Origin: an uncultured Anaerolineales bacterium
Lineage (GTDB): Bacteria; Chloroflexota; Anaerolineae; Anaerolineales; UBA11858
DNA: 55,942 nt
NCBI GenBank assembly: GCA_964653835.1
Contig: CAZZFZ010000001.1
Span: forward strand, 19,746 to 75,687
Direction of reading: 5' to 3'
A program made the translations under genes and the position numbers. The number at the start of each line of letters is the position of its first letter. The stretch's first letter is position 1. Shown in pieces: positions 23,101-41,962 of this stretch. The notes under the pieces are model-generated. The model saw only the letters and a list, made by a program, of their open reading frames with translations, did no database searches and was not told the DNA's origin.

Positions 23101-23553
23101 ATGAAGATATCTGGCGAATATGTTTTTGACGGCCAGCGTGATGTGCTCTGGCAGGCCCTCCGTGACCCGGAGGTGCTTGCCAACGCCATGCCGGGGACAC
23201 AGCGCCTTGAGAAAATCAGTGATACAGAGTATCAGGGGGAAATGAAAGTCCGCATCGGTCCCGTTGGGGGGAGCTTCAGCGGGAAGATCACGGTATCGGA
23301 CGAAGTGCCACCAGAACGTTACACCATGACGGTGGAAGGCCAGGGCAAAACCGGCTTTCTCAAGGGAGTGGGGCGGATCGAGCTGGAAGACCTGGGAGAT
23401 GGCACAACGCGCATGGTTTACACGGGGGAGGTGCAGATCGGCGGCAAAGTTGCCAGCGTGGGACAACGTCTGTTTGACACCGTGAGCAAGAACATCATCC
23501 GTCAAGGACTGGATAAGATCAACGAATCTTTGAAAGCCCGCCCCTCAACATAG
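23101..23553 (+). CDS. CoxG-like SRPBCC protein
   Basis: 150 aa. 'MKISGEY.F......W..L.DPEVL...MPG' and '..G.....G.V.IGG..ASVGQRL' fit the carbon monoxide dehydrogenase subunit G family. Confidence 0.85.
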   Translation: MKISGEYVFDGQRDVLWQALRDPEVLANAMPGTQRLEKISDTEYQGEMKVRIGPVGGSFSGKITVSDEVPPERYTMTVEGQGKTGFLKGVGRIELEDLGDGTTRMVYTGEVQIGGKVASVGQRLFDTVSKNIIRQGLDKINESLKARPST

Positions 23554-23874: not shown

Positions 23875-25227
23875 ATGGCTATTGCGGAACGCAAAATTGC
23901 AGGGTATCTCCCCAATGAGGCTCCGCCGTTCGGGCGCATGGTTGTGCTAGGGTTCCAGCACGTGTTGACCATGTTCCCCGCCACGGTTTTCTGTGCGCTC
24001 TTCACAGGCTTCCACGTCTCAACTGTGTTGTTTGTCGCCGGGCTGGCGACGGTTGTGGCGTTGATCCTCTCGAAGCTGGGCATCGGCAAGTTTATCCCCT
24101 TGTTCTATGGTTCGAGCTTTAGCTACCTGGCCGCCTACCTGGCGATCACCAACGCCGAATGGGGTGTTCCCGCTTCCGACGAGTTAATCAGCACCATGCA
24201 GGCGGGCATCCTGGTCACCGGCGTGTTCAACATCATTGTCGGCCTGATCATCAAAGCCGTTGGCAAAGAAGCCATTGATAAGGTCCTGCCGCCGGTGGTC
24301 ACCGGCTCGGTGGCAGCGATCATCGGCTTTGGCCTGGGTTTTGCCGCCCTTGATATGGCTTCGGTCAACTGGACTGTTGCTTTCATCACCCTGATAACCA
24401 CGATCCTGCTCTCGGCGTATTTGCAGGGGAGGGGCTTCATTGGCATGATCCCCATCCTTCTAGGCGCTATTGTTGGTTATGTTGTTTCGATCCCCCTGGG
24501 CTTGGTGGATTTTTCCGGCGTGGCCGCGGCGAACTGGCTGGTGGTGCCGCACTTCACCTTCCCCACGTTTAGCGGCCCCATGGTGGTGACGGCCATCTTC
24601 AGCATCAGTGTGATGGCGCTGGCCACCATTCCGGAGTCCACCGCTCACCTTTATCAGATCAGTCTGTATGTTGACCGCTTCGCCGAGCAGATTGGCGAGG
24701 AGCCTTATCACCTGGATGAGTACATCGGCTTCAACCTGATCCTGGATGGCCTGGGCGACATGATTAACGGCCTCTTCGGTTCGACGGCCGGGACAAACTA
24801 CGGTGAGAACAACTCGCTGATGGCGATCACGCTGAACTACTCCGGTCCGGTGTTGATCGCTGCTGGTGTGATCTCCATGTTGCTGGGCTTCATCGGCAAA
24901 CTGGAGGCGTTGGTGGCCTCCGTTCCGATTGCCGTCAGCGGTGGTCTGGCGATCTACCTCTTCGGCGTGATCGGCATGCAGGGCATCGCCCTGATGGTGG
25001 AGAACAACGTCAGCCTGTTCAACGCCCGGACGCTGGCCGTTGGCGCGGTAATTATGGTCATCGGCATCGGCGGCAACATCGGTTATCCGGGCGGCTTCCT
25101 GCCGATCCCTATCATGCAGGGGATATTCCCGCAAGGCCTGCCTGCCATCGCCACCGCGGCGGTTGTCGGCATCCTGTTGAACGCGGTTTTCCTGATCTTC
25201 AAACCACCCGAAACCAACTACGGGTGA
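23875..25227 (+). CDS. NCS2/NAT-family nucleobase permease, UraA (uracil)-like
   Basis: 450 aa polytopic protein. 'LGFQHVLTMFPATV' N-terminus. The NAT signature reads 'GENNSLMAIT', Glu-Asn as in UraA 'GENIGVMAIT' rather than Gln-Asn as in xanthine/urate carriers. Confidence 0.88.
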   Translation: MAIAERKIAGYLPNEAPPFGRMVVLGFQHVLTMFPATVFCALFTGFHVSTVLFVAGLATVVALILSKLGIGKFIPLFYGSSFSYLAAYLAITNAEWGVPASDELISTMQAGILVTGVFNIIVGLIIKAVGKEAIDKVLPPVVTGSVAAIIGFGLGFAALDMASVNWTVAFITLITTILLSAYLQGRGFIGMIPILLGAIVGYVVSIPLGLVDFSGVAAANWLVVPHFTFPTFSGPMVVTAIFSISVMALATIPESTAHLYQISLYVDRFAEQIGEEPYHLDEYIGFNLILDGLGDMINGLFGSTAGTNYGENNSLMAITLNYSGPVLIAAGVISMLLGFIGKLEALVASVPIAVSGGLAIYLFGVIGMQGIALMVENNVSLFNARTLAVGAVIMVIGIGGNIGYPGGFLPIPIMQGIFPQGLPAIATAAVVGILLNAVFLIFKPPETNYG

Positions 25228-25257
25228 TCCCTTACCACGTTTCGTGTAGTGCGCTTG

Positions 25258-25283
25258 CAGGCGCCTGGGCAACCGGGCGCCTG
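25258..25283 (+). terminator. Hairpin downstream of the permease gene (weak terminator)
   Basis: CAGGCGCC, 10-nt loop, GGCGCCTG. No immediate T-run. Confidence 0.4.
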
Positions 25284-25321
25284 TAATGGTTGATGTTTTG
25301 GCGGCGATTGGTGAAATGAAT

Positions 25322-25350
25322 TTGACACCAGCAGAGCATTTATGTAAAAT
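25322..25350 (+). promoter_or_regulatory. Near-consensus sigma-A promoter for BMP-ABC importer 1
   Basis: TTGACA (25322-25327), 17-nt spacer, TAAAAT (25345-25350). It leaves a leader of about 150 nt before ATG 25507. Confidence 0.55.
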
Positions 25351-25506
25351 GATGAGGCTGCAGGGGGTTTTCATTGACGAGGACGCGGCCCGTGGGCTGC
25401 TTATACGACGAATGGCGAACGTAAGAACAGGAGGTTGTATCGACACAAACGGATAACGCACATTCACTCTAACGGTTCTATCCCTATCCGTTCGAAGGAG
25501 GAAGAA

Positions 25507-26796
25507 ATGAAGCGTAAGTCGTTTTATCTGATCCTGGCTGCATTATTTGCGGCAACTCTGTTGCTGGCGGCCTGTAAGCCGGCAGCGCCCGAGGAAGCGC
25601 CCGCCGCCGAAGGGGAAAAGGCGGAAGAGGCGGCTCCGGCTGAAGAAGCGGCACCCGCTGCGGAGGAGTTGACCCTGGCCATTGAGCACTTCAGCATCAT
25701 CGAGGGCACAACTTGGTCGGGCGCTCATAACCGCGCTGGCGAGCGCATCGCCGAAAAATACCCCAATGTGAACTACGTTTATCGTGAAGAGGTCGGCCCC
25801 GATCTTTCGGTTCCCTTTGCTGAGGAATTGATCGCCAATGGCGCCGACATCGTTGTAGGTAACGCGGAGTTCATGGGCATGCCACTGGTCGAAATCGCCG
25901 ATAAATACCCCGATGTGAACTTTGTTTCCATCATCGCCAGCGACCTGACCACCAAGGACAACTTCCTGCGCATCTTCCCGCGCCAGTATCAGGCCCTCTA
26001 CCTCGAGGGGTTGATCGCCGGCGCGCTGACCGAAACGGGCAACATCGGTATTGTCTCGGCGTTCCCCTCGGTGCAGGTGATCCGCCGCACGGCTGGCTTC
26101 TACCTCGGTGTGATGGACGCTGCTGAACTGCTCGGCAAGGACATCACCGTGTATGTCAAATACGCGGGCGACTGGTACCTGCCGCAAGAAGAGCGCGATA
26201 TCGCCACCACGCTGGTGGATCAGTACAACGTGGATGTGATTACCCATCAGACCGACTCCGGGTCGCCGCTGGACGTGGCCGTGGAGAAGGGCATCTGGTT
26301 CGTGGGTAAGGACATGGACATCGTTGGCTTCTATGGCTGGGCCGACACCAATACGGTGGCGGTTTCCTTCGACACCCGCTGGGAAGTGCTGTATGATCAG
26401 ATCATTCAGGCTATGATGGCGGGAGAGCAGCCCGAGCAGATCCTCTACCTGGGTATGGAATCGACCATGACCCTGGCGGATGGCACCGAAGAGGCCACCG
26501 TGGATATCATGAATGACAACAAAGTCGGCATCGACGCCATCAGCCCTGCTGCACTGGATAAGATCCCGCAGGAGATCATCGACCTGGTCAAGCAGCGCCG
26601 CGAGCAGATGATGGCGGGCGAGTGGGATCCCTTCACCGAGCACGCCTTTGTCAGCAACGGCACCGGCCTGGAGCTGGAAGGGCTGCCCATCCCGGCGGCG
26701 GGCACCGAAGTGAAACCCGCTGGCGAGGAACCCACGGTTGAGTGGCTGCTCTCGCAGTTCAACTTCGACCTGGAAGGGATGAAGATCCTGGAGTAA
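25507..26796 (+). CDS. BMP-family (basic membrane protein / PnrA-like) ABC substrate-binding lipoprotein, copy 1
   Basis: Lipobox 'LLLAAC', then an Ala/Glu/Pro-rich linker. 'GNIGIVSAFP..QVIR...GF..G' is typical of BMP/Med binding proteins. SD GAAGGAGG before ATG 25507; the track start at 25435 is an in-frame extension. Confidence 0.9.
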   Translation: MKRKSFYLILAALFAATLLLAACKPAAPEEAPAAEGEKAEEAAPAEEAAPAAEELTLAIEHFSIIEGTTWSGAHNRAGERIAEKYPNVNYVYREEVGPDLSVPFAEELIANGADIVVGNAEFMGMPLVEIADKYPDVNFVSIIASDLTTKDNFLRIFPRQYQALYLEGLIAGALTETGNIGIVSAFPSVQVIRRTAGFYLGVMDAAELLGKDITVYVKYAGDWYLPQEERDIATTLVDQYNVDVITHQTDSGSPLDVAVEKGIWFVGKDMDIVGFYGWADTNTVAVSFDTRWEVLYDQIIQAMMAGEQPEQILYLGMESTMTLADGTEEATVDIMNDNKVGIDAISPAALDKIPQEIIDLVKQRREQMMAGEWDPFTEHAFVSNGTGLELEGLPIPAAGTEVKPAGEEPTVEWLLSQFNFDLEGMKILE

Positions 26797-26847
26797 GCTC
26801 AACGCTGAAATAACCACGCCGATCTTGACTTGACGTTACACGAAGAT

Positions 26848-26891
26848 GAGGCTCCCAGTCTTTGGGGGGTCCCCCCCAGGATGGGAGCCTC
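26848..26891 (+). other. Strong intercistronic stem-loop after the binding-protein gene
   Basis: GAGGCTCCCA (26848-26857) pairs with TGGGAGCCTC (26882-26891). There is an inner GGGGGG/CCCCCC stem. No T-run follows. Confidence 0.5.
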
Positions 26892-26944
26892 ACCTGTAGG
26901 TCTTATATCGTTCAATTTGTCAGGACAACATTGAGAAAAATCCT

Positions 26945-28492
26945 ATGCCGCCAGAAAAACCTGAGGTAAACAACACCGTCCTCTCCGCCCGCGGGATTAC
27001 CAAGCGCTTCCCTGGTGTGGTGGCAAACGACGGTATTGATTTCGACATCAAGGCGGGAGAAATTCACGCTATTTTGGGGGAAAACGGGGCTGGTAAAACC
27101 ACGCTGATGAACATCCTTTTTGGACTTTACCAGCCAGATGAAGGCGAGTTGTATGTTCATGGGAAGCGAGTTGAATTCAAGTCGCCGCTTGATGCCATTG
27201 AGTTGGGGATTGGCATGGTGCATCAGCATCGCAAGCTGGTGCCTGCTCACACCGTTTTGGAGAACATCGTTTTGGGGCACCCGCACGCCGGGAAGATTTT
27301 GAACCTGCGCCGCGCCGAGCGGGAATTGCGCCAGTTGTGCGATAAATATGGCTTCAAGATTGATTTTCGCGCCAAGGTGTGGCAGCTCTCGGAAGGGGAG
27401 AAGCAACTTGTGGAAATCCTCAAGGCGCTGTATCGCGGCGCGGAAATCTTGATCCTCGACGAACCCACTTCGGCGCTGACCCCGGTGGAGACCGAGATCT
27501 TGCTCGATTCGATCCAGGCTATGGCCGAACACGACCTGGCGATCGTCCCCTTCATCACCCACAAGCTGCCGATTGTGCTTTCGATCAGCGACCAGGTGAC
27601 CGTACTGCGTCGCGGCAAGGTCGTCAGCCGGATTGAGACGGCCAAGGCGACGGAGAAAAGCCTGGCGAAGGAGATGGTTGGCCGCGAGGTGCTTTTCCAC
27701 ATCAAGCGGGAGCGGGTTGAACCTGGCAAGCCGGTGCTGCAGGTGGAAAATCTCTCCGCGTTGAGCGATAAAGGCGTCACCGCGCTGGACAGCGTCTCGT
27801 TCACCATCCGGGAAGGGGAGATTTTCGGCGTCGCTGGCGTTTCCGGGAATGGTCAGCAAGAGCTGGTTGAGACGCTCGCCGGGCTGCGCGAACCCCAGGG
27901 TGGGCACATTTTCCTCGATGGGGTGGAGATCACCCACGCCAGCAGCCTGGAGCGCTGGAAACGGGGGCTGGGTTATATCCCGGCGGATCGCATCGGCATG
28001 GGCTCGATTGGTGAGTTCACCCTGGTGGAGAATGTCTTGCTCAACAACTTCTTCGATGAAGAGTTCTGCCGCTATGGTGTGCTGGATTACAAAAAGGCAC
28101 GTCAAGTGACTGAGGCGATGATTAAGGAATATGATGTCGCCGCGCCGGGGCCGGACGTGCTTGCGCGCAAACTCTCCGGCGGCAACCTGCAAAAGATTAT
28201 CCTGGCGCGCGTGCTCAACCGCAGGCCGCGCCTGGTGATCGCCGATCTCCCCTCGCAGGGGTTGGATGTCGGCGCTACGGAGTTCGTGCGCAACAAACTT
28301 GTGGACGCCAAGGTGGGCAAGGCTGCCGTGCTGCTGATCTCCGAAGACCTGGATGAAATTCTGGCGATCAGCGATTGGGTGGCGCCGATATACGAAGGCC
28401 GCTTCATGGGTATTTTGCCCGCGGATGAGGCGGCGCGGGATAAGATTGGTGAGATGATGGCTGGTTTGGCTGCGGAAGGTGAAGGACAATGA
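26945..28492 (+). CDS. ABC transporter ATP-binding protein with duplicated ATPase domains
   Basis: Walker A 'GENGAGKTT', signature 'LSEGEKQ', Walker B 'ILILDEPT'. The second half has 'GVSGNGQQEL' and 'LSGGNLQK'. Confidence 0.93.
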   Translation: MPPEKPEVNNTVLSARGITKRFPGVVANDGIDFDIKAGEIHAILGENGAGKTTLMNILFGLYQPDEGELYVHGKRVEFKSPLDAIELGIGMVHQHRKLVPAHTVLENIVLGHPHAGKILNLRRAERELRQLCDKYGFKIDFRAKVWQLSEGEKQLVEILKALYRGAEILILDEPTSALTPVETEILLDSIQAMAEHDLAIVPFITHKLPIVLSISDQVTVLRRGKVVSRIETAKATEKSLAKEMVGREVLFHIKRERVEPGKPVLQVENLSALSDKGVTALDSVSFTIREGEIFGVAGVSGNGQQELVETLAGLREPQGGHIFLDGVEITHASSLERWKRGLGYIPADRIGMGSIGEFTLVENVLLNNFFDEEFCRYGVLDYKKARQVTEAMIKEYDVAAPGPDVLARKLSGGNLQKIILARVLNRRPRLVIADLPSQGLDVGATEFVRNKLVDAKVGKAAVLLISEDLDEILAISDWVAPIYEGRFMGILPADEAARDKIGEMMAGLAAEGEGQ

Positions 28493-29610
28493 GAATTGGC
28501 AACTATCACTTTAAGCTCGAAAAGCGGGTGTCGCTGACCGGCTGGCAGGCGACCTCGATTTCGATCTTCGCCGTTGTCGTCGCCTTGCTGCTCTTTAGTT
28601 TGATCTTTGTGCAGGCGGGTGTCTCGCCCCTTGAGGCGTATGGCGAGATTTTCGACTATGCGTTTGCCAACCCTTATGGCTTGCCGTTGACGTTGAATCG
28701 TTTTATCTTTCTCTTGTTTTGTACGTATGCCTTTATTTTGCCCCTGCGGGCCGGACTGTGGAATATCGGCATGACCGGTCAGCTCTACGCCGGTTCTTTA
28801 AGCGTCTTCGCGGTGCTGTACGCCTTTGGGGCGCAGAGTTCGCGTTCGCTGGAGCTTGCGCCGGGACTGGTGATCCCCCTGATGGTGCTGGCGGCGCTCA
28901 TCGGCGGGATGGTGCCTGGGGCGATCGCTGGGTTTCTCAAAGGGCGCTACAACACCAATGAGATCGTCGTGACGATGATGCTGAATTTTATCTTCTTCTG
29001 GCTGGTTTCGTTCATGATTAAAGAGGGGGGCTTGTTCATGAATCCCGGCGGTCGCGGCGAAAGTTTTGAGCTGCCCCCTTCGGTGTATGCGCCGCTGTAT
29101 AAGGGTGTGCCCTTCACCGGCGCGCTGGTGCTGGGGATTGGTCTCTTGCTGGCGTTCCTCTTCGCACGCACGCGCCTGGGGTATGAGATCAAGGCGTATG
29201 GCAAAAGCCCCAACGCGGCGCGCTACGCTGGGATCAGTGCCTATCGAATTCCGTTGATCGTTTTCCTCCTCGGTGGGGCGATCGCCGGGCTGGCGGGATA
29301 TCACTATTTCGCTGCCGTGCCGGGGGTTTACAAGATCGCGCGTAATTACGTGCAATTTGGTGATCTTGCCTTCTACGGCATTATCTGCGGCCTGATCTCC
29401 CAGGGCAACCCGCTGTCGGCCATCCCTGTGGCGTTATTGTTCGGCGGATTGTCGATTGGCGGCCGTTTTGTGCAGGGAAAGATGCACATGGCCTTTGGTG
29501 TGGATTACGCCCTGTTGGGTGTCTTGATGATTACCCTGGTGGCTTTTCAGTTTTTCTATCGGTACAAGATCGTACGCCTGCGAATCATGGAGGAAGTCGC
29601 CGATGCTTGA
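28489..29610 (+). CDS. ABC transporter permease (BMP-type system)
   Basis: 373 aa polytopic protein. Its start overlaps the ATPase stop (ATGA). Confidence 0.9.
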   Translation: MRIGNYHFKLEKRVSLTGWQATSISIFAVVVALLLFSLIFVQAGVSPLEAYGEIFDYAFANPYGLPLTLNRFIFLLFCTYAFILPLRAGLWNIGMTGQLYAGSLSVFAVLYAFGAQSSRSLELAPGLVIPLMVLAALIGGMVPGAIAGFLKGRYNTNEIVVTMMLNFIFFWLVSFMIKEGGLFMNPGGRGESFELPPSVYAPLYKGVPFTGALVLGIGLLLAFLFARTRLGYEIKAYGKSPNAARYAGISAYRIPLIVFLLGGAIAGLAGYHYFAAVPGVYKIARNYVQFGDLAFYGIICGLISQGNPLSAIPVALLFGGLSIGGRFVQGKMHMAFGVDYALLGVLMITLVAFQFFYRYKIVRLRIMEEVADA

Positions 29611-30478
29611 GTTCATCGCCCGAAGCCTGGATGCTTCGACTATTTTCACGATCGCCGCGCTGGGCGAACTGGTTGGCCAGCGATCAGGTATTCTGAACGT
29701 CGGCGTGGAAGGGGTGATGTTGTTTGGGGCCACGCTGGGCTTTATCGTCGCGCAGACCACCGGGAGTTTCCTGCTGGGCTTTCTGGTGGGCGTCGCGGTT
29801 GGTGGCCTGCTTGGGTTGCTGCATGGGTTTTTCTCCATCACTCTGGGGGGCGACCAGGTCGTCAGCGGCATGGGGATCTGGATCCTCGGGTTTGGGTTGA
29901 CCACCTATATCGGCAGCCCCTATACCGGCCCGCTGGGCATGGATCGCATCCCCACGCTGTTTGGGCTTTCCCCGTTTTTCTATGTCGGCATCGCCTCCGT
30001 GGCGCTGGTGTGGTTTGTGCTGCACAAGACCAGCCTGGGATTGGCGATCCGCTCGGTGGGTGAGAACCCCTCTGTGGCGGAAGTTTCGGGGATCAACGTA
30101 TCGCGCATTCGCTATTTGTGCGTTGTGGTCGCGGGGATGTTCATGGGACTGGCCGGCGCGGTGTATTCGCTGAACTATAACCCGGTGTGGAACTACAACT
30201 TCCTGATGGGGTGGGGGTTCGTCGCCCTGGCGTTGGTCTTCTTCTCGATGTGGAATCCCTGGTTCTTGCTCGGCGGCTCCCTGCTCTTTGGCACGATGTG
30301 GCAACTTTCGCTCAACCCGGAGATGGTGCTCCCTGGCGTGTTGTCGCGCTACATCTGGCGTACCATCCCCTTTGTGATTACCGTGGTCGTGTTGCTGATT
30401 ATGTCCACGCGCTGGTTCCGCACCCGCTGGGGGGCGGCCAAGCCCGAGGCGCTGGGGTTGCCATATGTTAAAGAATAG
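29603..30478 (+). CDS. ABC transporter permease (BMP-type system)
   Basis: 291 aa polytopic protein. 'GE.V.QRSGILNVGVEG.M' is a typical N-terminal motif. 8-nt overlap with the preceding gene. Confidence 0.9.
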   Translation: MLEFIARSLDASTIFTIAALGELVGQRSGILNVGVEGVMLFGATLGFIVAQTTGSFLLGFLVGVAVGGLLGLLHGFFSITLGGDQVVSGMGIWILGFGLTTYIGSPYTGPLGMDRIPTLFGLSPFFYVGIASVALVWFVLHKTSLGLAIRSVGENPSVAEVSGINVSRIRYLCVVVAGMFMGLAGAVYSLNYNPVWNYNFLMGWGFVALALVFFSMWNPWFLLGGSLLFGTMWQLSLNPEMVLPGVLSRYIWRTIPFVITVVVLLIMSTRWFRTRWGAAKPEALGLPYVKE

Positions 30479-30531
30479 GGGGCATGGTTCATCTGTGCAG
30501 ATCGTGTGGCGTTATGGTGACATTTGTTAGA

Positions 30532-30561
30532 TTGACAGAGATTGACACCGATGCGTAAAAT
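30532..30561 (+). promoter_or_regulatory. Sigma-A-like promoter for the decarboxylase operon
   Basis: TTGACA (30532-30537), 18-nt spacer, TAAAAT (30556-30561). A second TTGACACC lies at 30542. It shares 'TTGACACC' and 'GTAAAATGA' with the promoter at 25322. Confidence 0.5.
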
Positions 30562-30593
30562 GAAATCGCTTTATAGCGAGAAGTCAGGCTAGC

Positions 30594-30632
30594 GGCCAGG
30601 GGGTGGAGAGTGGACTTCTCCACCCTTTGGCC
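30594..30632 (+). promoter_or_regulatory. Terminator-like hairpin inside the decarboxylase leader (candidate attenuator)
   Basis: GGTGGAGA (30602-30609) pairs with TCTCCACC (30617-30624). The stem is extended by GGCCAGGG / CCCTTTGGCC and followed by the U-rich CTTTGGCCTTTGG. Confidence 0.4.
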
Positions 30633-30681
30633 TTTGGCTAAATATTCAGTTCGCGTCATTCGATGATACGGAGGAGCCATT

Positions 30682-32232
30682 TTGGATCATCAAGCACTGA
30701 TCGCTGAGTTGAAAGAAAAACGGAAGAGCATTGCTCAAGGGGGTGGTGAAAAACGCATCGAAGCGCAACACGCCAAAGGGAAATTAACCGCCCGCGAACG
30801 CATCAACCTGCTTCTGGATGAAGGTAGCTTTCAAGAGGTTGACGCCTATTGGACGCATCGCCATTCTGATTTCGGCATGGATCAGAAGCGCTACCCCGGT
30901 GATAGCGTGGTGGTCGGGTTTGGCAAAATTGATGGCCGCATGGTCGCCGTCTATTCCCAGGATTTCACCGTGCTGGGCGGTTCGTTCTCAGAAGTTCAAG
31001 GGCAGAAAATTGCCAAGGTGTTCGATCTGGCCTTGGATGCAGGCGTTCCGGTCATCGGCATCATGGATTCGGTCGGCGCGCGCATCCAGGAAGGGGTCTA
31101 TAGCCTGGCGGCGTATTCGGAATTGTTCTGGCGTAACACTCAGGCCAGCGGAGTGGTGCCGCAGATCAGCGTGATGGTTGGTCCCTGCGCCGGTGGCTCG
31201 GTTTATTCGCCCGGCCTGACGGATTTCGTCATCATGACCGAGGGCGTCAGTCAGATGTTCATCACTGGCCCCAAGGTGATCGAAACGGTGACGCGCGAGA
31301 AAGTGGATATGGAGACCCTGGGCGGTGCGGCGGTGCACAGCGCCAAGAGCGGTGTGGCGCATTTCGTCGCCCCCGATGAGCCTGCCGCGTTTCAACTCAC
31401 GCGCAAGCTGTTTAGCTACCTGCCTTCCAACAACGCCGAAGCTCCGCCCTCGACTCCGCCGCAAGACGATCCCTGGCGGCAAGACGAAGCGCTCAACACC
31501 CTGGTGCCTACCGATCCGTCTGAGGCCTATGATATGCGCGAAGTGATCGAGCGCATTTTTGACCTGGGCAGTTTTATGCCGGTGCACGAACGCTTCGCCA
31601 CCAGCGCTATCGTAGGTTTTGCCCGTTTGCATGGGCAGCCGGTAGGCGTGATCGCCAATCAGCCCAGTGTGCTGGCGGGCGTGCTGGACATCGATACCTC
31701 AGACAAGATCGCCCGCTTCATCCGTTTTTGTGATGCCTTCAATATCCCCTTGATCTCTCTGATCGACACGCCAGGGTTCATGCCCGGCGTGATGCAGGAG
31801 CACAGTGGCGTCATCCGTCATGGGGCCAAGATCGTCTACGCTTATTCCGAAGCCACGGTGCCGAAACTGGCGGTCATTGTGCGCAAGGCGTATGGCGGCG
31901 CGTACATCGTTATGAGCAGCAAGTATATTCGCACCGATCTGGTCTACGCCTGGCCGACGGCGGAGATCGCCGTAATGGGCGCGGATGGGGCGGTCAACAT
32001 TCTTTACGCCAAAGATCTGAAGAGCGCGGAGAACCCCGAGGAAGTAAGGCAGCAGTTCGTCGCCGAGTTCAAGGAGAAGTTTTCCAAGCCCTATACCGCC
32101 GCCGCCAGTGGCCATGTGGATGACGTGCTCATTCCCTCCGAGACGCGCCCACGGCTGATCGCCGCCCTGGAATTGCTCAAAGACAAGCGCACGCAGACGC
32201 GCCCGAAAAAGCATGGCAATATCCCGCTTTAA
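30682..32232 (+). CDS. Acyl-CoA carboxyltransferase subunit (MmdA / PccB-like alpha subunit of a biotin decarboxylase)
   Basis: 516 aa. 'KGKLTARERI..LLD.GSF.E', 'GDSVV.G.G.I.GR.V.V.SQDFTV.GGS' and 'AYGGAYIVM' are typical of methylmalonyl-CoA decarboxylase alpha / propionyl-CoA carboxylase beta. TTG start with GGAGG 7 nt upstream. Confidence 0.92.
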   Translation: MDHQALIAELKEKRKSIAQGGGEKRIEAQHAKGKLTARERINLLLDEGSFQEVDAYWTHRHSDFGMDQKRYPGDSVVVGFGKIDGRMVAVYSQDFTVLGGSFSEVQGQKIAKVFDLALDAGVPVIGIMDSVGARIQEGVYSLAAYSELFWRNTQASGVVPQISVMVGPCAGGSVYSPGLTDFVIMTEGVSQMFITGPKVIETVTREKVDMETLGGAAVHSAKSGVAHFVAPDEPAAFQLTRKLFSYLPSNNAEAPPSTPPQDDPWRQDEALNTLVPTDPSEAYDMREVIERIFDLGSFMPVHERFATSAIVGFARLHGQPVGVIANQPSVLAGVLDIDTSDKIARFIRFCDAFNIPLISLIDTPGFMPGVMQEHSGVIRHGAKIVYAYSEATVPKLAVIVRKAYGGAYIVMSSKYIRTDLVYAWPTAEIAVMGADGAVNILYAKDLKSAENPEEVRQQFVAEFKEKFSKPYTAAASGHVDDVLIPSETRPRLIAALELLKDKRTQTRPKKHGNIPL

Positions 32233-32252
32233 CAGGAAGCAGAGGTGTTCAC

Positions 32253-32570
32253 GTGAGTAGTTTGGGTCAGGGTTTAAGTATCAGCGTGATGGGGATTTTG
32301 ATCACCTTTGCCTCACTGGGGATTTTGATCCTGGTGATGATCGCCCTGCGGGAGTGGTTTGCGCCGCGCACCTCGAAGGAGGCCCCTCGGCCTGATGGCA
32401 GTGAGGATGGCGCACCGCAGACGGAAAGCGACGCCGCGGCGGTGGCTGCGGCCACGGCTGTGGCTTTTCTGAAGGCCCGGCAACGTCAACGTGCGGCGCT
32501 TGGCAAAGTCCTCGAAGCGCCGCAGGGGCGCTGGTGGCTCATGAATGCACTGTGGAGGCACGATGGCTGA
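32253..32570 (+). CDS. OadG-like small membrane subunit of the Na+-translocating decarboxylase
   Basis: The N-terminal helix 'LGQGLSISVMGILITFASLGILILVMIAL' matches the OadG family pattern. GTG start. Confidence 0.68.
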   Translation: MSSLGQGLSISVMGILITFASLGILILVMIALREWFAPRTSKEAPRPDGSEDGAPQTESDAAAVAAATAVAFLKARQRQRAALGKVLEAPQGRWWLMNALWRHDG

Positions 32571-33012
32571 CAACACCCACAAAATCCTTGTGCGAATCGA
32601 TGGCCAGGAATTTCAGGTTGAGGTTGAAAATTTAAACGCTTCGCCCGTGGTCGCGCGCGTGAACGGACGCGCTTATCAGGTCTTCCTGGAGGAAAGCAGC
32701 GGCAGTAGTACTGTTGCGTCGGTGCCGAGAGTGGTCGCCGTGCCCGCGACTACTGCTCAACCGGCTGCCGCGGTGGCGCCGCCTGCAACGGAGGCCGCCA
32801 CGGACGTGGTCACTGCCCCCATGCCGGGTGACATCGTCGAAGTGAAAGTCCTTCCCGGACAGGAAGTCCAGGCCGGGGATCCGATTTGTGTCCTCGACGC
32901 CATGAAGATGAAGAACATGATTTATTCGCCGCAGGCTGGCCGGGTGGCCAGCGTCGACGTCGCGCCGGGGCAATCGGTGGACTACGGCACGGTGCTGGTG
33001 CGCTTCGAGTAG
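32563..33012 (+). CDS. Biotin carboxyl carrier subunit
   Basis: C-terminal biotinyl domain with the 'VLDAMKMKN' (AMKM) attachment motif. An Ala/Pro-rich linker is present. ATG 32563 is preceded by GGAGG and overlaps the upstream stop. Confidence 0.85.
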   Translation: MADNTHKILVRIDGQEFQVEVENLNASPVVARVNGRAYQVFLEESSGSSTVASVPRVVAVPATTAQPAAAVAPPATEAATDVVTAPMPGDIVEVKVLPGQEVQAGDPICVLDAMKMKNMIYSPQAGRVASVDVAPGQSVDYGTVLVRFE

Positions 33013-33022
33013 GGAGTATTTT

Positions 33023-34147
33023 ATGGATATCGTCAGGCTGTTGTTGCAGGCTCCCTTATCGCTGACGTGGCAAAGCGCGGTGATGATCGCTGTAGGCGGG
33101 GTGTTGATTTACCTGGCCGTGGCTAAAGATTATGAGCCGGTGCTGCTTTTGCCAATCGGGTTTGGCGCCATCCTCACCAACCTGCCGCTGACCGGCATTG
33201 CCGACGCCAGTCAGCATGGGTTGCTGGGGATTCTCTACGAGGCGGGGATCACTACTGAGTTGTTCCCGCTGCTGATTTTCATTGGGATCGGCGCAATGAC
33301 CGATTTTGGCCCCCTGCTGGAAAACCCCAAGATGGCGTTGCTGGGCGCGGCTGGGCAGTTTGGGATTTTTGGCACCCTGATGTTGGCGCTCAGCCTGGGG
33401 TTCAATTTGAACGAGGCGGCCTCGATCGGCATCATCGGCGCGATTGATGGGCCAACGGCGATTTACGTCTCAAGCCGCCTGGCTCCAGAGCTGCTGGGGC
33501 CGATCGCCGTGGCGGCTTACAGCTATATGTCGCTTGTGCCGATCATTCAACCGCCGGTGATGCGATTGTTGACCACCAACGCGGAGCGCACCGTGCGCAT
33601 GCCTTACACACAGCGCGAGATCTCCAAAACCGCGCGTGTGCTTTTCCCCATCGTGGTGACCATCATTGTGTCGCTGATCTCCCCGAAAGCCTCGCCATTG
33701 ATCGCCACGCTGATGTTTGGTAATCTGATGCGTGAATCCGGCGTTGTGGAGCGCCTCTCGAAAGCGGCGCAAAACGAGATTGCCAATGTCACCACCATCT
33801 TCCTGGGCCTGACGATTGGCAGCACGATGACCGGGGCGAGCTTTATCCGTCCGGAGACGGCGTTGATCCTGGCGATGGGGCTGCTGGCCTTTGTGCTGGA
33901 CACGGTGGGTGGCGTGTTGTTTGGCAAGCTGCTTTACCTGCTTTCTGGCAAGAAGTTCAACCCGCTGATCGGCGCGGCGGGCATCAGCGCCTTTCCAATG
34001 TCAGCGCGCATAGTGCAGCGTGTGGGGCAGGAGTATGATCGAGGTAACTTTTTACTGATGCACGCCATGGGCGCCAACACCGCCGGGCAATTGGGCAGCG
34101 TGGTGGCTGGCGGCGTCGTGCTGGCGCTGCTCTCTGGTGCGTTTTGA
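33023..34147 (+). CDS. Na+-translocating decarboxylase beta (membrane pump) subunit (OadB/MmdB/GcdB family)
   Basis: 374 aa polytopic protein. 'EP.LLLPIGFG.IL.N.P', 'GA.GQ.GIF', 'GAIDGPT.I', 'GAAGISAFPMSAR' and 'LMHAMG.N..G' are characteristic. Confidence 0.92.
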   Translation: MDIVRLLLQAPLSLTWQSAVMIAVGGVLIYLAVAKDYEPVLLLPIGFGAILTNLPLTGIADASQHGLLGILYEAGITTELFPLLIFIGIGAMTDFGPLLENPKMALLGAAGQFGIFGTLMLALSLGFNLNEAASIGIIGAIDGPTAIYVSSRLAPELLGPIAVAAYSYMSLVPIIQPPVMRLLTTNAERTVRMPYTQREISKTARVLFPIVVTIIVSLISPKASPLIATLMFGNLMRESGVVERLSKAAQNEIANVTTIFLGLTIGSTMTGASFIRPETALILAMGLLAFVLDTVGGVLFGKLLYLLSGKKFNPLIGAAGISAFPMSARIVQRVGQEYDRGNFLLMHAMGANTAGQLGSVVAGGVVLALLSGAF

Positions 34148-34186
34148 GTTTTGTGTATTCCTGATATAGAAGTAAGGAGCATTTTT

Positions 34187-35068
34187 ATGAAGCTGATTGA
34201 TCTCACCATTCCTCTGGGGGTGGGCACACCCCCGTGGCCGACCTATGAACCCTTACAGGTCAAGTATTTCAAGCGCCTGGCGCCCAATGGTGCAAACGGT
34301 CAGTTGTTGACCCATTCCAACCATCTGGGGACGCACCTGGATGGCGAAATCCACTTTTATACGCCTGGCAAGGATATGGCCGAGCTGGATATGGATTTCC
34401 TCGTCCACGAAGGGGTGATCGTGGACTTGAGCGACGTCGCCGGCGATTACGATATCTACACCAGCCAGATGGTGGAAGAGCGGGTGGAGGTCAAAGAGGG
34501 CGATATCCTCATCATCCACACCGGCTACCATCACTTTGGCTGGGATCACGACACCGCCGATGAGATTCGCTACATGGTCAAGCACCCTGGGCCAGACCGC
34601 GAGTTTGCCGAGTGGGCCAAGGCCAAGAAACTGCGCTGGATTGGCGTAGATTGTGGCAGCGCCGATCACCCGATGAACACCATCATCCGCAACTGGATGC
34701 CGCGGCAGGCGAAAGAGGCTGAAAAGGTCTTCCAAAAGAAGTTTGGCAAAACAGTCGCCGAGGTCTTTGACGACAGCAAATACCAGTTGATGCACATTGA
34801 GATGTTCCCACATGGCATCATCCACGCGGAGTGCCTGGGCGGCGACATTGACCTGCTGCTCAATCAGCGCGTGACCATCGGCTTCTTCCCCTGGCGCTTT
34901 GTCGATGGCGAAGCCAGCATCGGGCGTTGTGTGGCCTTTGTAGAAGATGATCGCTACGAAGAGCTGATGGCCAGGAAGGTGCAGATGCCCAAAACGCGCT
35001 TCGGCGACGCCGTTGACCCCGCGCATGTGGAGCGCCTCAACAAACTCAGCGTGGCGAACCTGGCTTAG
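34187..35068 (+). CDS. Cyclase-family (kynurenine-formamidase-like) hydrolase, single domain
   Basis: Intact metal motif 'HLGTHLDGEIH'. 'GDILIIHTGYHHFGW', 'KHPGP' and 'GVDCGSADHPMNT' are paralogous to both halves of 16646-18316. AAGGAG precedes ATG 34187. Confidence 0.88.
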   Translation: MKLIDLTIPLGVGTPPWPTYEPLQVKYFKRLAPNGANGQLLTHSNHLGTHLDGEIHFYTPGKDMAELDMDFLVHEGVIVDLSDVAGDYDIYTSQMVEERVEVKEGDILIIHTGYHHFGWDHDTADEIRYMVKHPGPDREFAEWAKAKKLRWIGVDCGSADHPMNTIIRNWMPRQAKEAEKVFQKKFGKTVAEVFDDSKYQLMHIEMFPHGIIHAECLGGDIDLLLNQRVTIGFFPWRFVDGEASIGRCVAFVEDDRYEELMARKVQMPKTRFGDAVDPAHVERLNKLSVANLA

Positions 35069-35075
35069 CAACATG

Positions 35076-35113
35076 CACCCTTGGCGGGGCTTTCCCGTTG
35101 AGGGTGTTTTTGT
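35076..35113 (+). terminator. Rho-independent terminator
   Basis: CACCCT...(CGGG/CCCG inner stem)...AGGGTG followed by TTTTTGTTG. Confidence 0.7.
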
Positions 35114-35156
35114 TGAAATTTATTAATCCAACCGATCTACCAAAAGGAGAAAGAAC

Positions 35157-35882
35157 ATGCGTCTCGAAACACCCTGTGATGTCACTCGTCCTCAGATCAC
35201 CTTTGACGTCGAAGAAATTGAACCCATCCTTCAGGCTCCGCCGATGGATTTGAAGCCCTGGCCTGGGGCGATGATCGAACTGAAAGATGGCCGCACGCTC
35301 TACATCCGCGAAGCGCGCCTCGAAGAGGCCCCCATGATGATGGAGTATGTCATGAAGGTCATGCAGACCAAGCACGACTTTTATGACGTGGTCGGCGCGC
35401 GCGTGTATGCCGAGCTGGCTGGCTGGTATCGCAAGCGCTTGAAGGATCCCTACACCCTGGTGGGAATCGTGGATGGGGTATGGGCCGGTTTCGCCAATGG
35501 TCGCCTGATGAACAAGGATATCAACATCAGCCTGCACACGATGGCGCTGCTGCGCGGCCTACGCGTTGGCGCGATCATGTACTACGCCAAGGCCTACTAC
35601 GGCTTTGAGATCCTTGGCAACAAGGAATGGTGGGCGACCTATGAGAGTTACAATGGCTGGAAGCGCTGGGGCGTTGGCATGGCTCAGCCGAGCTATCCCT
35701 GGCCGGAGTACCAGCATGAACTCGGCGGCGCGCGCGTTTATTACGTCACCAAGGAATACTGGGATGCCGCGGTGAAGGATTACGTCCGCCAGATGGTTGG
35801 CGCAGACCTGAACTTTGACGTGCCCGATGAGATCGTCAAGGCTAATGAGACCATGCGTCTCCCAGACGACGTGACCGTATAA
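35157..35882 (+). CDS. Hypothetical protein (241 aa), possibly GNAT-fold
   Basis: Good SD (AAAGGAG). Coding-like composition. 'IELKDGRTLYIREARLEEAPMMMEY' and 'LLRGLRVGAIMYY' loosely recall the acetyltransferase N-terminus and motif A. No firm family recognised. Confidence 0.7.
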   Translation: MRLETPCDVTRPQITFDVEEIEPILQAPPMDLKPWPGAMIELKDGRTLYIREARLEEAPMMMEYVMKVMQTKHDFYDVVGARVYAELAGWYRKRLKDPYTLVGIVDGVWAGFANGRLMNKDINISLHTMALLRGLRVGAIMYYAKAYYGFEILGNKEWWATYESYNGWKRWGVGMAQPSYPWPEYQHELGGARVYYVTKEYWDAAVKDYVRQMVGADLNFDVPDEIVKANETMRLPDDVTV

Positions 35883-35895
35883 AGTTTTGAAAGAT

Positions 35896-35926
35896 GGGGC
35901 AGGTCGATGACTGGTCGGCCTGCCCC
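35896..35926 (+). terminator. Hairpin after the hypothetical gene (weak terminator)
   Basis: GGGGCAGG (35896-35903) pairs with CCTGCCCC (35919-35926). The U-tract is poor. Confidence 0.4.
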
Positions 35927-36078
35927 AAATTCCATGAGTCGAGTGCCCTGTTAGTAAGCGCGGCTCATACTGAACGGCGTTTTATTACTGTATCCTGAGT
36001 TCAGTTTGAAAGGAGGTGGTTCGGAGCAAATACTTTCGATTGTGATTCCATTCGTTTCTATAAAGACAGGAGGAAAAG

Positions 36079-37101
36079 ATGTCTATCAAACGGTTCCCCA
36101 TTTTCCTGGTTGTGGCTGTGCTGCTGGTGTTGGTGGCAGCCTGTGCTCCGAAACAGGCCGCAGAACCGGCTGGAGGAGAGGCTGGCGTGCCCTTCTTCTA
36201 CGCCGCATTTGCCACCCCGATTGAAGAACCCTGGGACGGTGTGATCCACGAAGCACTGCAAAAAGCCGCCGATGAGGGCAAGATCACCTACGAGTACACC
36301 GACGATATCGGCTACTCTGGCGATATGGAGCGCGTGCTGCGCGAGGTCGCCGAGCAAAAGAAGCCGGACGCCATCTTTGGCGATGCCTTTGGCAACGAAG
36401 AAGCTGTGCGGCGCGTGGCGGCGGATTACCCGGAGATCGCCTTTGTGTTTGGTTCGGGCTTTGGCCCGGCAGGGGATAACTTCGCCGTCTTCGATAACTG
36501 GATTCACGAACCGGCTTATCTGAGCGGGTTGATCGCTGGCGGTGTGACCGAGAGCAACGTGATCGGCGTCGTCGGTGGGCATCCTGTCCCCGAGGTGAAC
36601 CGCATCATCAACGCCTTCATCCAGGGCGTCAAGGAAGTCAACCCGGATGCCACCGTGCTGGTCACCTTTATCAACAGCTGGTTTGATCCCGCGGCAGCTA
36701 AGGAAGCTGCGCTCTCGCAGATTGACGCTGGGGCGGACGTGCTCTTCGCTGAGCGCTTTGGCGTGATCGAGGCCGCGGTGGAGAACGATCTGTATGCTTT
36801 TGGCAACATGAGCGATCAGTATGACCTCGGCCCCGACCACGTACTCACCGGCCCGGTGTGGAACATGACCCCCACGGTGGAGTACGTCATCGAACAGGTC
36901 AAGGGTGGCACCTTTACCTCGCAAGACCTGAAAGACTTCAGCATGATGGGCAAGGGCGGCGCTTCGCTGGCCCCCTACCACGGCATGGATGAGAAGATCC
37001 CGCAGGAGATCATCGATCTGGTGCAGCAGCGCCAGGATGAGATTTTGCAAGGTCTCTTCCGCGTGGACATCGATGAAGCCGCGCCGGCTGGTTCGAACTA
37101 G
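36079..37101 (+). CDS. BMP-family ABC substrate-binding lipoprotein, copy 2
   Basis: Lipobox 'LVAAC'. 'NVIGVVGGHPVPEVNRIINAFIQG' is typical of BMP proteins. SD AGGAGG. Confidence 0.9.
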   Translation: MSIKRFPIFLVVAVLLVLVAACAPKQAAEPAGGEAGVPFFYAAFATPIEEPWDGVIHEALQKAADEGKITYEYTDDIGYSGDMERVLREVAEQKKPDAIFGDAFGNEEAVRRVAADYPEIAFVFGSGFGPAGDNFAVFDNWIHEPAYLSGLIAGGVTESNVIGVVGGHPVPEVNRIINAFIQGVKEVNPDATVLVTFINSWFDPAAAKEAALSQIDAGADVLFAERFGVIEAAVENDLYAFGNMSDQYDLGPDHVLTGPVWNMTPTVEYVIEQVKGGTFTSQDLKDFSMMGKGGASLAPYHGMDEKIPQEIIDLVQQRQDEILQGLFRVDIDEAAPAGSN

Positions 37102-40694: not shown

Positions 40695-41939
40695 ATGGCA
40701 AATCAATTTGATCTTCTGGTAAAAAATGGTCGGCTTCGCGGGCAGCCCGAAAAGCGCGTCGATATCGGCATCGCCGAGGGGCGCATCGCGGTGATGGAGG
40801 AGAACCTGAGCGGGGAGGCGGCGGTGGTGCTGGATGCCGGTGGCAACCTGGTCACCGAGTCGTTTGTCAACACCCACCTGCACCTGTGCAAGGTTTACAC
40901 CCTGCCGATGATGGACGAACTCGCCCTCAAGGACTACCACGGCGCGGACATGGGCAAGGCGATGACCGCCATCGAGCTGGCGGCGCGGGTTAAGGAGAAT
41001 TACGACGAAGTCTGGATCATCAAGAACGTGCGCAAGGCCATCGCCCTCTCGGCGATCTACGGCGGCACGCACGTGCGCGCCTTCGCCGATGTGGATAGCA
41101 AAGCCAAGCTGGAAGGCGTCAAGGCGCTGTTGCGCGCCCGCGACGAATTCAAGGGGATCGTGGATATTCAGGTGGTGGCATTTGCCCAGGACGGGATCGT
41201 GCGAGAGCCGGGCGCGGAGGAATTGATGCGCCAGGCCATGGAGTTGGGCGCCGATGTGGTGGGCGGCATCCCCTGGATCGAATACACCGACGCCGACATC
41301 GCCGAGCACGTGCGCGTGTGCTTCGACCTCGCCGAGGAGTACGACAAGCCGGTTTCCATGCTGGTGGATGACGCCGGCGACTCTGGCCTGCGTTCGCTGG
41401 AGGTCATGGCGTTGGAGACGATCCAGCGCGGCTGGCAGGGGCGCTCGCTGGCGCACCATGCCCGCGCTATGGCGCTGTATCCCAAGCCGTATTTACAAAA
41501 ACTGGCCGCGCTGCTGAAGAAGGCTGAAATGGGCGTGGTCAGCGATCCGCACACCGGCCCGTTGCACGCCCGCGTGCGAGAGCTGCTGGAGGAGGGCGTG
41601 CTGGTCTGCCTGGGGATGGATGATATTTCCGATGCGTACTATCCCTATGGGCGCAACAACATGCTGGAGGTCGCTTTCCTGGTTTCGCACCTCTTGTGGA
41701 TGACCACCCGGCAGGATATGGAGACGCTGTACGATATGGTGACCACGAAGGCGGCGCAGTGCATCGGCCTGACTGATTTTGGCCTGCGGGTGGGCGCGCC
41801 TGCCAACCTGGTGGTGCTCGATCAGCCCGACGTTCTCGAGGCGCTGCGTTACCACGACGCGCCGAAGTATGTCATCAGCCACGGCAGGCTGGTGGATCAG
41901 GAGAAGATGCGTTCTCTAGTTAATACGCGTGAGTGGTAG
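40695..41939 (+). CDS. Amidohydrolase-superfamily deaminase/ring hydrolase (CodA / AtzC-like)
   Basis: 414 aa. 'DLLVKNGRL......VDIGI.EGRI' then the metal motif 'FVNTHLHL'. The ~410-aa length and layout match bacterial cytosine deaminase relatives. Confidence 0.85.
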   Translation: MANQFDLLVKNGRLRGQPEKRVDIGIAEGRIAVMEENLSGEAAVVLDAGGNLVTESFVNTHLHLCKVYTLPMMDELALKDYHGADMGKAMTAIELAARVKENYDEVWIIKNVRKAIALSAIYGGTHVRAFADVDSKAKLEGVKALLRARDEFKGIVDIQVVAFAQDGIVREPGAEELMRQAMELGADVVGGIPWIEYTDADIAEHVRVCFDLAEEYDKPVSMLVDDAGDSGLRSLEVMALETIQRGWQGRSLAHHARAMALYPKPYLQKLAALLKKAEMGVVSDPHTGPLHARVRELLEEGVLVCLGMDDISDAYYPYGRNNMLEVAFLVSHLLWMTTRQDMETLYDMVTTKAAQCIGLTDFGLRVGAPANLVVLDQPDVLEALRYHDAPKYVISHGRLVDQEKMRSLVNTREW

Positions 41940-41962
41940 TCCGCCAGGCGGTTTATTTAACC

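Follow-up and report, generated by a model that had tools for sequence, protein, structure and literature searches.

To our knowledge, Na+-pumping decarboxylases are known only from a few fermentations, namely those of oxaloacetate, methylmalonyl-CoA, glutaconyl-CoA and malonate. The methylmalonyl-CoA decarboxylase of Propionigenium modestum and Veillonella parvula (MmdABCD(E); EC 7.2.4.3) is encoded in one operon, with genes for the acyl-CoA carboxyltransferase (a single chain), the small anchor subunit, a separate biotin carrier that contains an Ala/Pro linker, and a pump of the OadB family. The same arrangement is found at positions 30682–34147 of the 55,942-nt stretch of DNA analyzed here (the window), which covers positions 19,746–75,687 of the forward strand of contig CAZZFZ010000001.1 (assembly GCA_964653835.1). 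The window belongs to an uncultured Anaerolineales bacterium that is represented by a metagenome-assembled genome of 2.97 Mb (93% complete), and all readings are based on sequence comparison and comparative genomics. The four genes almost certainly specify a biotin-dependent, Na+-translocating decarboxylase of four subunits, most likely one for (methyl)malonyl-CoA. The enzyme would be an ordinary member of the known family, and its metabolic role appears to be undescribed. Unlike in MmdABCD(E), the alpha subunit falls under the mmdA cut-off (766 vs 999 bits), and no mutase, epimerase or succinate CoA-transferase is found near the operon. The window operon is instead embedded in, and predicted to be co-transcribed with part of, a cluster for N-heterocycle breakdown, and its proposed substrate is pyrimidine-derived malonyl-CoA rather than succinate-derived methylmalonyl-CoA.

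The MadA–H system of Malonomonas rubra (EC 7.2.4.4) likewise conserves energy by decarboxylating malonate, by way of a biotin carrier and a pump of the OadB type (PMC8085960). Mad uses an acyl carrier protein (ACP), MadA, an acyl-ACP:malonate transferase and a split carboxyltransferase (MadC/MadD), whereas in the window the alpha subunit is a single fused chain and free CoA, provided through a family-III CoA-transferase, would carry the thioester. The window open reading frames (ORFs) scanned with Pfam include no ACP or MadA-like family, and the pump reaches only 181 bits with the Mad-type pump model TIGR03136 (cut-off 597 bits). A Malonomonas-type malonate decarboxylase was ruled out on these grounds and on the lack of a split carboxyltransferase. 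Another close system is reported from Sporomusa malonica, in which malonyl-CoA decarboxylation is membrane-bound and depends on CoA; according to Dehning and Schink, Sporomusa is said to use malonyl-CoA.

The proposed intermediates upstream of the decarboxylase (uracil, barbiturate, ureidomalonate and malonate) and the hydroxylase start are those of the oxidative pyrimidine pathway of aerobic actinomycetes, a pathway that we otherwise know only from aerobes. The class of the window organism is known mainly as anaerobes, and no report of oxidative pyrimidine pathway genes in anaerobes was found in the searchable literature. The AtzD/TrzD-fold barbiturase and the amidase-signature ureidomalonase of the aerobic pathway were not found in the scanned window ORFs; in the window, cyclase-family, AllFGH-like and C–N hydrolase proteins would instead open the ring and cleave the ureide. 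Carbamoyl phosphate, not urea, would be the form in which the ureido group is released, and malonate would be activated and then decarboxylated by the Na+ pump. The oxamic transcarbamylase AllFGH consists of the same FdrA, DUF1116 and DUF2877 three-protein set and corresponds to the same proposed phosphorolysis of an N-acylurea (PMC11326118). Unlike in the AllFGH system, the window genes are split and interleaved with the CoA-transferase and C–N hydrolase genes, and carbamate kinase is encoded on another contig. The window substrate is also proposed to be one carbon longer, with an amide product that would be metabolized further, whereas oxamate is excreted.

Subunit composition of the decarboxylase

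The alpha subunit (30682–32232, + strand, 516 residues) is a carboxyltransferase of the PccB/12S/MmdA type and matches PF01039 (Carboxyl_trans) over its full length with 620 bits. Its best family is mmdA (TIGR01117), at 766 bits and thus below the curated cut-off of 998.8. Solved PccB-type carboxyltransferases, the 12S transcarboxylase subunit and the archaeal 'MmdA' are matched with 589–665 bits, the closest being 1VRG (665 bits) and 1X0U (638 bits), compared with only 88–116 bits for the glutaconyl-CoA decarboxylase subunit GcdA. The expected substrate class is accordingly (methyl)malonyl-CoA, as proposed in a preliminary description of the locus that had recognized an acyl-CoA-type alpha subunit, and a glutaconyl-CoA decarboxylase was ruled out. 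Residue Ile409 of the alpha subunit lies in a GGAY-I-VM motif. The variable position of this motif is Ile in all 24 cluster-linked relatives as well and Asp in the carboxylase paralogue on contig C19 of the same genome, and GGAY-I-VM is common to linked and unlinked alpha subunits. We take this position to be the specificity position occupied by D422 in S. coelicolor PccB and I420 in AccB, and Ile409 is the only hint that the acetyl/malonyl pair is accepted.

The small subunit (32253–32570, + strand, 105 residues) is an OadG/MmdD-like membrane anchor with a single hydrophobic helix at its N-terminus, as read from the sequence. Its family match is weak, with 31.1 bits for PF04277 (OAD_gamma; cut-off 27) and 27.7 bits for TIGR01195, under the cut-off of 36. 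The MmdC-like biotin carboxyl carrier (32545–33012, + strand, 155 residues; PF00364 Biotin_lipoyl, 69 bits) contains an Ala/Pro-rich linker and an AMKM motif at residues 119–122, in which the biotinyl residue Lys121 is encoded by codon 32905–32907. Translation of the carrier possibly starts at the ATG at 32563.

The beta subunit (33023–34147, + strand, 374 residues) is an OadB/MmdB-family Na+ pump that matches PF03977 (OAD_beta) with 524 bits, TIGR01109 with 465 bits (cut-off 191) and Salmonella OadB (6IVA) with 371 bits. In the alignment, the beta subunit retains the equivalents of Salmonella/Klebsiella OadB residues E40, D203, R304, N311, S382 and N412, all of which are essential by mutagenesis (PMC7274780). 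The equivalents of Y229, N373, G377 and R389 are retained as well. The oadB gene is present as a single copy in the genome. All subunit families are thus matched in their places, in agreement with the initial assignment of the four contiguous genes as a complete Na+-translocating biotin-dependent decarboxylase. In the predicted reaction, the alpha subunit would move the free carboxyl group of (methyl)malonyl-CoA onto the biotin of the carrier, the beta subunit would decarboxylate carboxybiotin and export Na+, and the small subunit would anchor the complex.

Operon structure and linkage to the catabolic cluster

The four decarboxylase genes are preceded by a promoter-like site (30532–30561, + strand; TTGACA-18-TAAAAT) that matches 11 of 12 consensus positions. 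The 5' leader contains a strong hairpin (30594–30632, + strand) with a 17-bp central stem, and the 120-nt leader folds with −53.5 kcal/mol (RNAfold). The hairpin is followed by TTTGGC, not by a T run, and is conserved in the closest relative (L008; loci are numbered L, genomes G and contigs C). No Rfam family is matched at its gathering score anywhere in the window, the best match in 25200–36200 being at chance level (E = 0.08), and a riboswitch or known RNA in the leaders was dropped as a clue to the ligand. A fifth gene (34187–35068, + strand) encodes a cyclase-family metal hydrolase (PF04199, 107 bits) with the HxGTHxDxxxH motif in the form HLGTHLDGEIH. The gene starts with the ATG at 34187, 39 bp past oadB, with no strong terminator between them, and its orthologue in genome G322 starts at the Met corresponding to this ATG. 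The sole strong terminator of the unit is an intrinsic one (35075–35107, + strand), composed of a 15-pair stem with 8 G–C pairs and a subsequent T run. The promoter, the terminator and the 39-bp spacing therefore define a five-gene transcription unit. The cyclase-family protein is a candidate ring-opening amidohydrolase and is proposed to be an analogue of barbiturase. Among the 35 related loci described below, 13 have this gene next to oadB.

The promoter region of the operon contains a second TTGACACC copy, from 30542. In relatives L009–L013 and L016, mmdA is preceded by a conserved GTAAGTTGACATGTCTGACAAT...AATAAAAT element with a doubled TGACA, also where another gene lies on that side; its window counterpart (30532–30563) reads TTGACAGAGATTGACACC...GTAAAATGA. 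The element is possibly an operator carried along with the decarboxylase cassette. The boxes TTGACACC and GTAAAATGA recur with a different spacing in the importer promoter at 25322–25352, a weak hint that the importer and the decarboxylase are co-regulated.

The surrounding catabolic cluster is encoded on the + strand except for the AllH-like gene. Upstream of the operon, the genes are arranged in the order PsuG (7065–8060; Pfam scan), AllH-like protein (10332–11210, − strand; PF11392), family-III CoA-transferase (11383–12594; PF02515, 485 bits), FdrA/AllF-like protein (12629–14350; NF004760, 556 bits, cut-off 433), C–N hydrolase (14375–15268; PF00795), AllG-like protein (15295–16536; PF06545), a double cyclase-family protein, an NmrA-like protein, a CoxMSL-type molybdenum hydroxylase with CoxG (19301–23553; Pfam), an NCS2 permease (23875–25227; Pfam) and a Bmp-type ABC importer. 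The decarboxylase operon with the cyclase gene is followed by a 241-residue orphan, a second Bmp-type ABC importer and, at 40695–46358, a CodA/AtzC-like amidohydrolase, a fused Mo hydroxylase, an Fcy1-type cytosine deaminase of the CDA fold and XdhC, all assigned from family or structure matches. The NCS2 permease and the CoA-transferase genes lie 5.4 and 18 kb upstream of the decarboxylase, respectively, and the deaminase genes lie 6.5 and 10.7 kb downstream. The setting between a nucleobase importer and cyclase/deaminase genes, with a CoA-transferase upstream, had been described correctly; as a refinement, the gene immediately 5' of mmdA encodes the last permease of the Bmp-type ABC importer.

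The linkage of the decarboxylase to this cluster recurs in relatives. Relatives of the alpha subunit were sought in one genome per species, which yielded 80 loci, and 35 Chloroflexota loci with 65–94% identity were examined. Cluster genes flank the decarboxylase operon in 26 of these 35 loci, in at least 10 gene orders, and the remaining loci are mostly short contigs or members of a sister clade. The operon lies between the permease and the cyclase genes in the window, L008–L010, L014, L016 and L017; L011 and L012 show only the mmd–cyclase side, as their contigs begin at mmdA. In L019 and L024, AllH, NCS2 and CoxMS-type Mo hydroxylase genes precede the operon, and amidohydrolase, FdrA, AllG, cyclase and orphan genes follow it. 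In L025 and L032, it is preceded by Bmp-type ABC importer, CoxMS-type Mo hydroxylase and CoA-transferase genes. Further arrangements, among others, place the second importer (L023), divergent AllG–FdrA genes (L028 and L035) or the amidohydrolase (L031) before the operon, or an orphan–ABC–orphan group after it (L079). The CoA-transferase gene stands immediately 5' of mmdA in L025, L032 and L040, and the FdrA, AllG and cyclase genes stand immediately 3' of the operon in L019 and genomes G303 and G344. Genes of the AllH, FdrA, C–N hydrolase or AllG type flank the decarboxylase in L019, L024, L028, L029, L035, L036, G303, G344 and G187.

In the tree of alpha subunits, the window sequence belongs to a 99%-supported clade of 18, of which 16 are linked to the cluster and the other two lie on short contigs. 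A wider, 97%-supported clade of 36 alpha subunits includes the window sequence. Outside it, the alpha subunits of G303, G282 and G344, which come from the sample of 401 Anaerolineae genomes described below, form a separate 99% clade with the gene order mmdA–bccp–oadB–FdrA–AllG–cyclase. Given the strongly supported branches, linkage must have been gained or lost five times or more. An operon unlinked from these neighbors in related genomes had been named as evidence against the proposed role, and the opposite is observed, with 26 of 35 loci linked in many orders and in two separate alpha clades.

Genome G322, from the same order and in 10 contigs, provides a direct comparison (loci L092/L093; C8:62001–102000). 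Its cluster is collinear with window positions 11383–35068, from the CoA-transferase to the cyclase, and lacks the NCS2 permease and the four decarboxylase genes, with the cyclase gene located 65 bp after the last ABC permease gene. G322 has an Mmd operon of its own on another contig, with an alpha subunit from a third clade. The 3.7-kb mmd cassette, promoter included, was thus either inserted in the window lineage or lost in G322. Chance adjacency and simple inherited synteny were rejected because the linkage takes many gene orders and involves two alpha clades, and because the collinear cluster of G322 lacks the cassette. Pump identity, completeness, single copy number, operon structure and recurrent physical linkage to the cluster are evident from the sequence, and functional integration of the decarboxylase into the cluster is well supported and likely.

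Further variants were observed among the related loci. In G322, a 396-residue ORF after the cyclase gene (L093:7940–9130) has no counterpart in the window. In G187 (L104/L105; C4:25001–65000), the carboxyltransferase and carrier genes are located in the cluster, and no OadB was found anywhere in the 97%-complete genome; in L036 (10001–12380), mmdA is located in the cluster, and the space before the cyclase gene is too small for oadB. Both cases add to the evidence for physical linkage. The contig of L026 (CAZTLA010000006.1), labeled Syntrophales, encodes an alpha subunit (72% identical) and an OadB (79%) that are nested in the Chloroflexota clade, which reflects either horizontal transfer or a binning error.

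Proposed pathway and alternative explanations

The substrate of the cluster was considered from the closest solved relatives of its transport and deaminase proteins. The NCS2 permease reaches 155 bits with the uracil permease UraA and 30 bits with UapA, a urate/xanthine carrier. For the CDA-fold deaminase, the full-length match to yeast cytosine deaminase Fcy1 (128 bits) exceeds those to TadA (75 bits) and guanine deaminase (46 bits), and the amidohydrolase matches AtzC (195 bits) and the E. coli cytosine deaminase CodA (156–161 bits). As UraA, Fcy1 and CodA/AtzC are the closest solved relatives, pyrimidines are favored. PsuG, encoded at the start of the cluster, releases uracil. The closest solved relative of the CoA-transferase is the dicarboxylate enzyme SUGCT (397 bits), and malonyl-CoA is listed as a donor for this enzyme class in a review (PMC8085960). 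E. coli AllFGH phosphorolyses oxalurate as an oxamic transcarbamylase (PMC11326118); by analogy, oxalurate being the one-carbon-shorter homologue of ureidomalonate supports an AllFGH-like step.

The conserved core of the cluster consists of the permease, Mo hydroxylase, cyclase-family hydrolase, AllFGH-like proteins, C–N hydrolase, CoA-transferase and carboxyltransferase complex. This core would map one-to-one onto a route from uracil through barbiturate, ureidomalonate, carbamoyl phosphate plus malonamate, malonate and malonyl-CoA to acetyl-CoA. In the proposed pathway, bases would be taken up by the NCS2 permease, and cytosine would be converted to uracil by the Fcy1-type and CodA-like deaminases. 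Uracil or thymine would be hydroxylated at C6 by a molybdenum hydroxylase to (5-methyl)barbiturate; two xanthine-dehydrogenase-family Mo enzymes in the window are candidates for this step. The cyclase-family hydrolase would open the ring to ureidomalonate, the AllFGH-like complex would phosphorolyse the acyl-urea to carbamoyl phosphate and malonamate, and the C–N hydrolase would convert malonamate to ammonia and malonate. The family-III CoA-transferase would then form malonyl-CoA, or methylmalonyl-CoA from thymine, with CoA probably donated by acetyl-CoA. Finally, malonyl-CoA would be converted to acetyl-CoA and CO2 by the pump with export of Na+, which would make the decarboxylase the last, energy-conserving step of the surrounding cluster. 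The substrate, the order of the steps from hydroxylation to CoA transfer and the protein responsible for each of these steps are inferred. A pyrimidine-via-barbiturate route ending in Na+-coupled malonyl-CoA decarboxylation is the best available explanation of the locus and is considered moderately probable.

The distribution of the pump both supports and limits its place in this route, and several points weigh against the route itself. Co-occurrence was assessed in 401 evenly drawn Anaerolineae genomes with the cyclase orthologue (at least 69% identity) as the cluster marker, a gene chosen because close orthologues of the orphan are present in just 4 of the 401 genomes. OadB is encoded in 157 genomes, the cyclase orthologue in 106 and both in 78; the resulting table (78/28/79/216) gives an odds ratio of 7.6 (Fisher p = 4e-17), which speaks for the link, in a statistic uncorrected for phylogeny and genome size. 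OadB and the cyclase share a contig in only six sampled genomes and mostly lie on different contigs, and OadB is missing from 28 of the 106 cluster-bearing genomes, several of which are complete. The pump is therefore a frequent, repeatedly recruited and optional end module. OadB is also widespread in itself, and stand-alone Mmd operons among unrelated genes are common. Regarding the pathway, purine hydroxylases are the enzymes that the fused Mo hydroxylase resembles most (TIGR03311, 727 bits). The AtzD/TrzD-fold barbiturase and the amidase-signature ureidomalonase are absent from the Pfam results for 40 window ORFs, the rest of the genome not having been searched, and two steps therefore need guessed non-homologous replacements. 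The carbamate kinase, whose presence in the genome fits the carbamoyl phosphate step, lies outside the cluster, on contig C116. With two mutase-family genes in the genome, ordinary succinate/propionate metabolism could be another use of its one pump. The ATP synthase is probably proton-coupled: the sole c subunit found (C92:5539–5802; ...GIGIVTSG...AFAEAVAIY...) lacks what we take to be the Gln...Glu-Ser/Thr signature of Na+-type enzymes, and a Na+-type ATP synthase is not supported. Na+-coupled transport or Na+/H+ exchange might draw on the gradient instead.

The most serious alternative is that the complex is a general methylmalonyl-CoA decarboxylase for succinate-to-propionate or amino-acid fermentation, like those of Propionigenium and Veillonella, and that it came to lie in the cluster only by genome rearrangement, with no functional connection to the genes around it. 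OadB/Mmd operons are common in Anaerolineae (157 of the 401 genomes), usually standing alone among unrelated genes, and the genome combines its one pump with two genes of the methylmalonyl-CoA mutase family (MM_CoA_mutase), both on other contigs. The best family of the alpha subunit is mmdA, and the GGAY-I-VM motif does not separate linked from unlinked alpha subunits. Rearrangement alone would, however, have to account for a linkage that recurs in at least 10 gene orders and two separate alpha clades, for the CoA-transferase or FdrA/AllG genes that directly adjoin the operon in several lineages and for the cyclase gene in the same transcription unit. No mutase gene is found within 10 kb of the operon in the window or in any of the 36 related Chloroflexota-clade loci, and OadB is enriched 7.6-fold in cluster-bearing genomes. 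Unlinked Mmd operons adjoining a mutase or epimerase gene were looked for, and none was found. A purely general role is thus unlikely, though it keeps appreciable weight, and it and the role in the cluster are not mutually exclusive.

Slightly less probable is a cluster that degrades another N-heterocycle or ureide (such as a purine via xanthine/urate, an imported ureide like oxalurate or a substituted pyrimidine or triazine), with the pump acting on a derived 2-carboxy-acyl-CoA. The fused Mo hydroxylase most closely resembles selenium-dependent xanthine dehydrogenase and PucD, XdhC is present, and the genome contains another four genes for Mo hydroxylase large subunits (two on C13, one on C103 and the fused one of the window). 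The amidohydrolase is slightly nearer to the triazine enzyme AtzC than to CodA, and AllFGH genes adjoining Bmp-type ABC importers have been interpreted as oxalurate utilization (PMC12625717). Against these resemblances, the permease and the CDA-fold deaminase are far nearer to uracil- and cytosine-specific proteins than to purine-specific ones, no allantoinase, allantoicase or uricase family is seen in the Pfam scans of the window ORFs, and purine rings give no plain malonyl skeleton. Oxalurate would be degraded to oxamate and oxalate. Biotin carboxyltransferases need an alpha-carbanion, and oxalyl-CoA has no alpha carbon for it; the pump would be left without a substrate.

The preliminary description had also considered that the alpha subunit might belong to a carboxylase with a separately encoded biotin carboxylase. 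The genome encodes three carboxyltransferases, one of which, on contig C19, is 59% identical to the window alpha subunit and is followed in its operon by a biotin carboxylase and a carrier of its own; this paralogue is, from its gene context, a true carboxylase. The C19 biotin carboxylase is the only one in the genome detected near a carboxyltransferase, none is present in the window, and a carboxylase that pairs the window alpha subunit with the C19 enzyme was rejected on account of the complete operon there. Operation of the complex as a carboxylase, in which the Na+ gradient drives acetyl- or propionyl-CoA carboxylation or the alpha subunit and carrier pair with the C19 enzyme, would agree with the reversibility of Na+-pumping decarboxylases in vitro and with the retention of the carboxyltransferase in G187 and L036 (and of the carrier in G187) without a pump gene, and can nevertheless be practically dismissed, as the C19 biotin carboxylase has its own partners, the window pump is intact with all essential residues and a catabolic cluster has no evident need for carboxylation.

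Accessory genes and implications

The orphan gene downstream of the terminator (35157–35882, + strand, 241 residues) gives no Pfam, NCBIfam or PDB sequence match. Its AlphaFold model (pLDDT 70, pTM 0.74) is predicted to adopt a GNAT fold, and the top 50 Foldseek matches are all GNAT (acyl-CoA acyltransferase) enzymes. The sequence is unusually well conserved, the best 120 database matches being 75–98% identical and all Chloroflexota-like. The orphan adjoins the cyclase gene in 11 related loci and is a near-constant partner of the single-domain cyclase in the lineage of the window. Direct transfer by the orphan of the malonyl group of the acyl-urea or amide to CoA could be imagined from the modeled fold and is improbable. 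Between PsuG and the AllH-like gene, two ORFs in overlapping regions (8362–9438, − strand, and 9450–10553, + strand), of doubtful status as genes, have no Pfam match and no counterpart in related loci.

Related functions are also encoded outside the window. The 9-kb contig C116 carries a second ureide-type catabolic unit (333–8912), in which a carbamate kinase above its family cut-off (2707–3663) follows two ORFs with STRTR, the carbamoyl-phosphate-binding motif of ATCase/OTCase-type transcarbamylases, and precedes a third Bmp-type ABC importer. Three more sets of xanthine-dehydrogenase-family Mo hydroxylases are located on C13 (two) and C103 (one), and a fourth and a fifth Bmp-type ABC importer are located on C13 and C140, respectively. 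From this gene content, the genome seems to be specialized in N-heterocycle oxidation.

The link between a Na+ pump and nucleobase breakdown had been put forward as undescribed, and a search of the full-text literature, which leaves most subscription journals outside its coverage, accordingly found no paper that connects the breakdown of pyrimidines or barbiturate in anaerobes with AllFGH homologues or with a Na+-pumping decarboxylase. The chances are about even that the locus represents an undescribed anaerobic pyrimidine fermentation via barbiturate, with two points of energy conservation (ATP from carbamoyl phosphate and the Na+ gradient), ring opening by a cyclase-family protein and a pump recruited several times independently within Anaerolineae. 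The proposal gives testable functions to the PF04199 paralogues, to AllFGH homologues outside allantoin metabolism and to the GNAT-fold orphan. If true, it would add nucleobase breakdown as a new substrate class for decarboxylation-driven energy conservation and would give the oxidative pyrimidine pathway an anaerobic equivalent. Members of Anaerolineae abound in sediments, digesters and the subsurface, habitats in which the turnover of nucleic acids supplies a major share of carbon and nitrogen. The cyclase-marked cluster is present in about one in four of the genomes sampled from this class.

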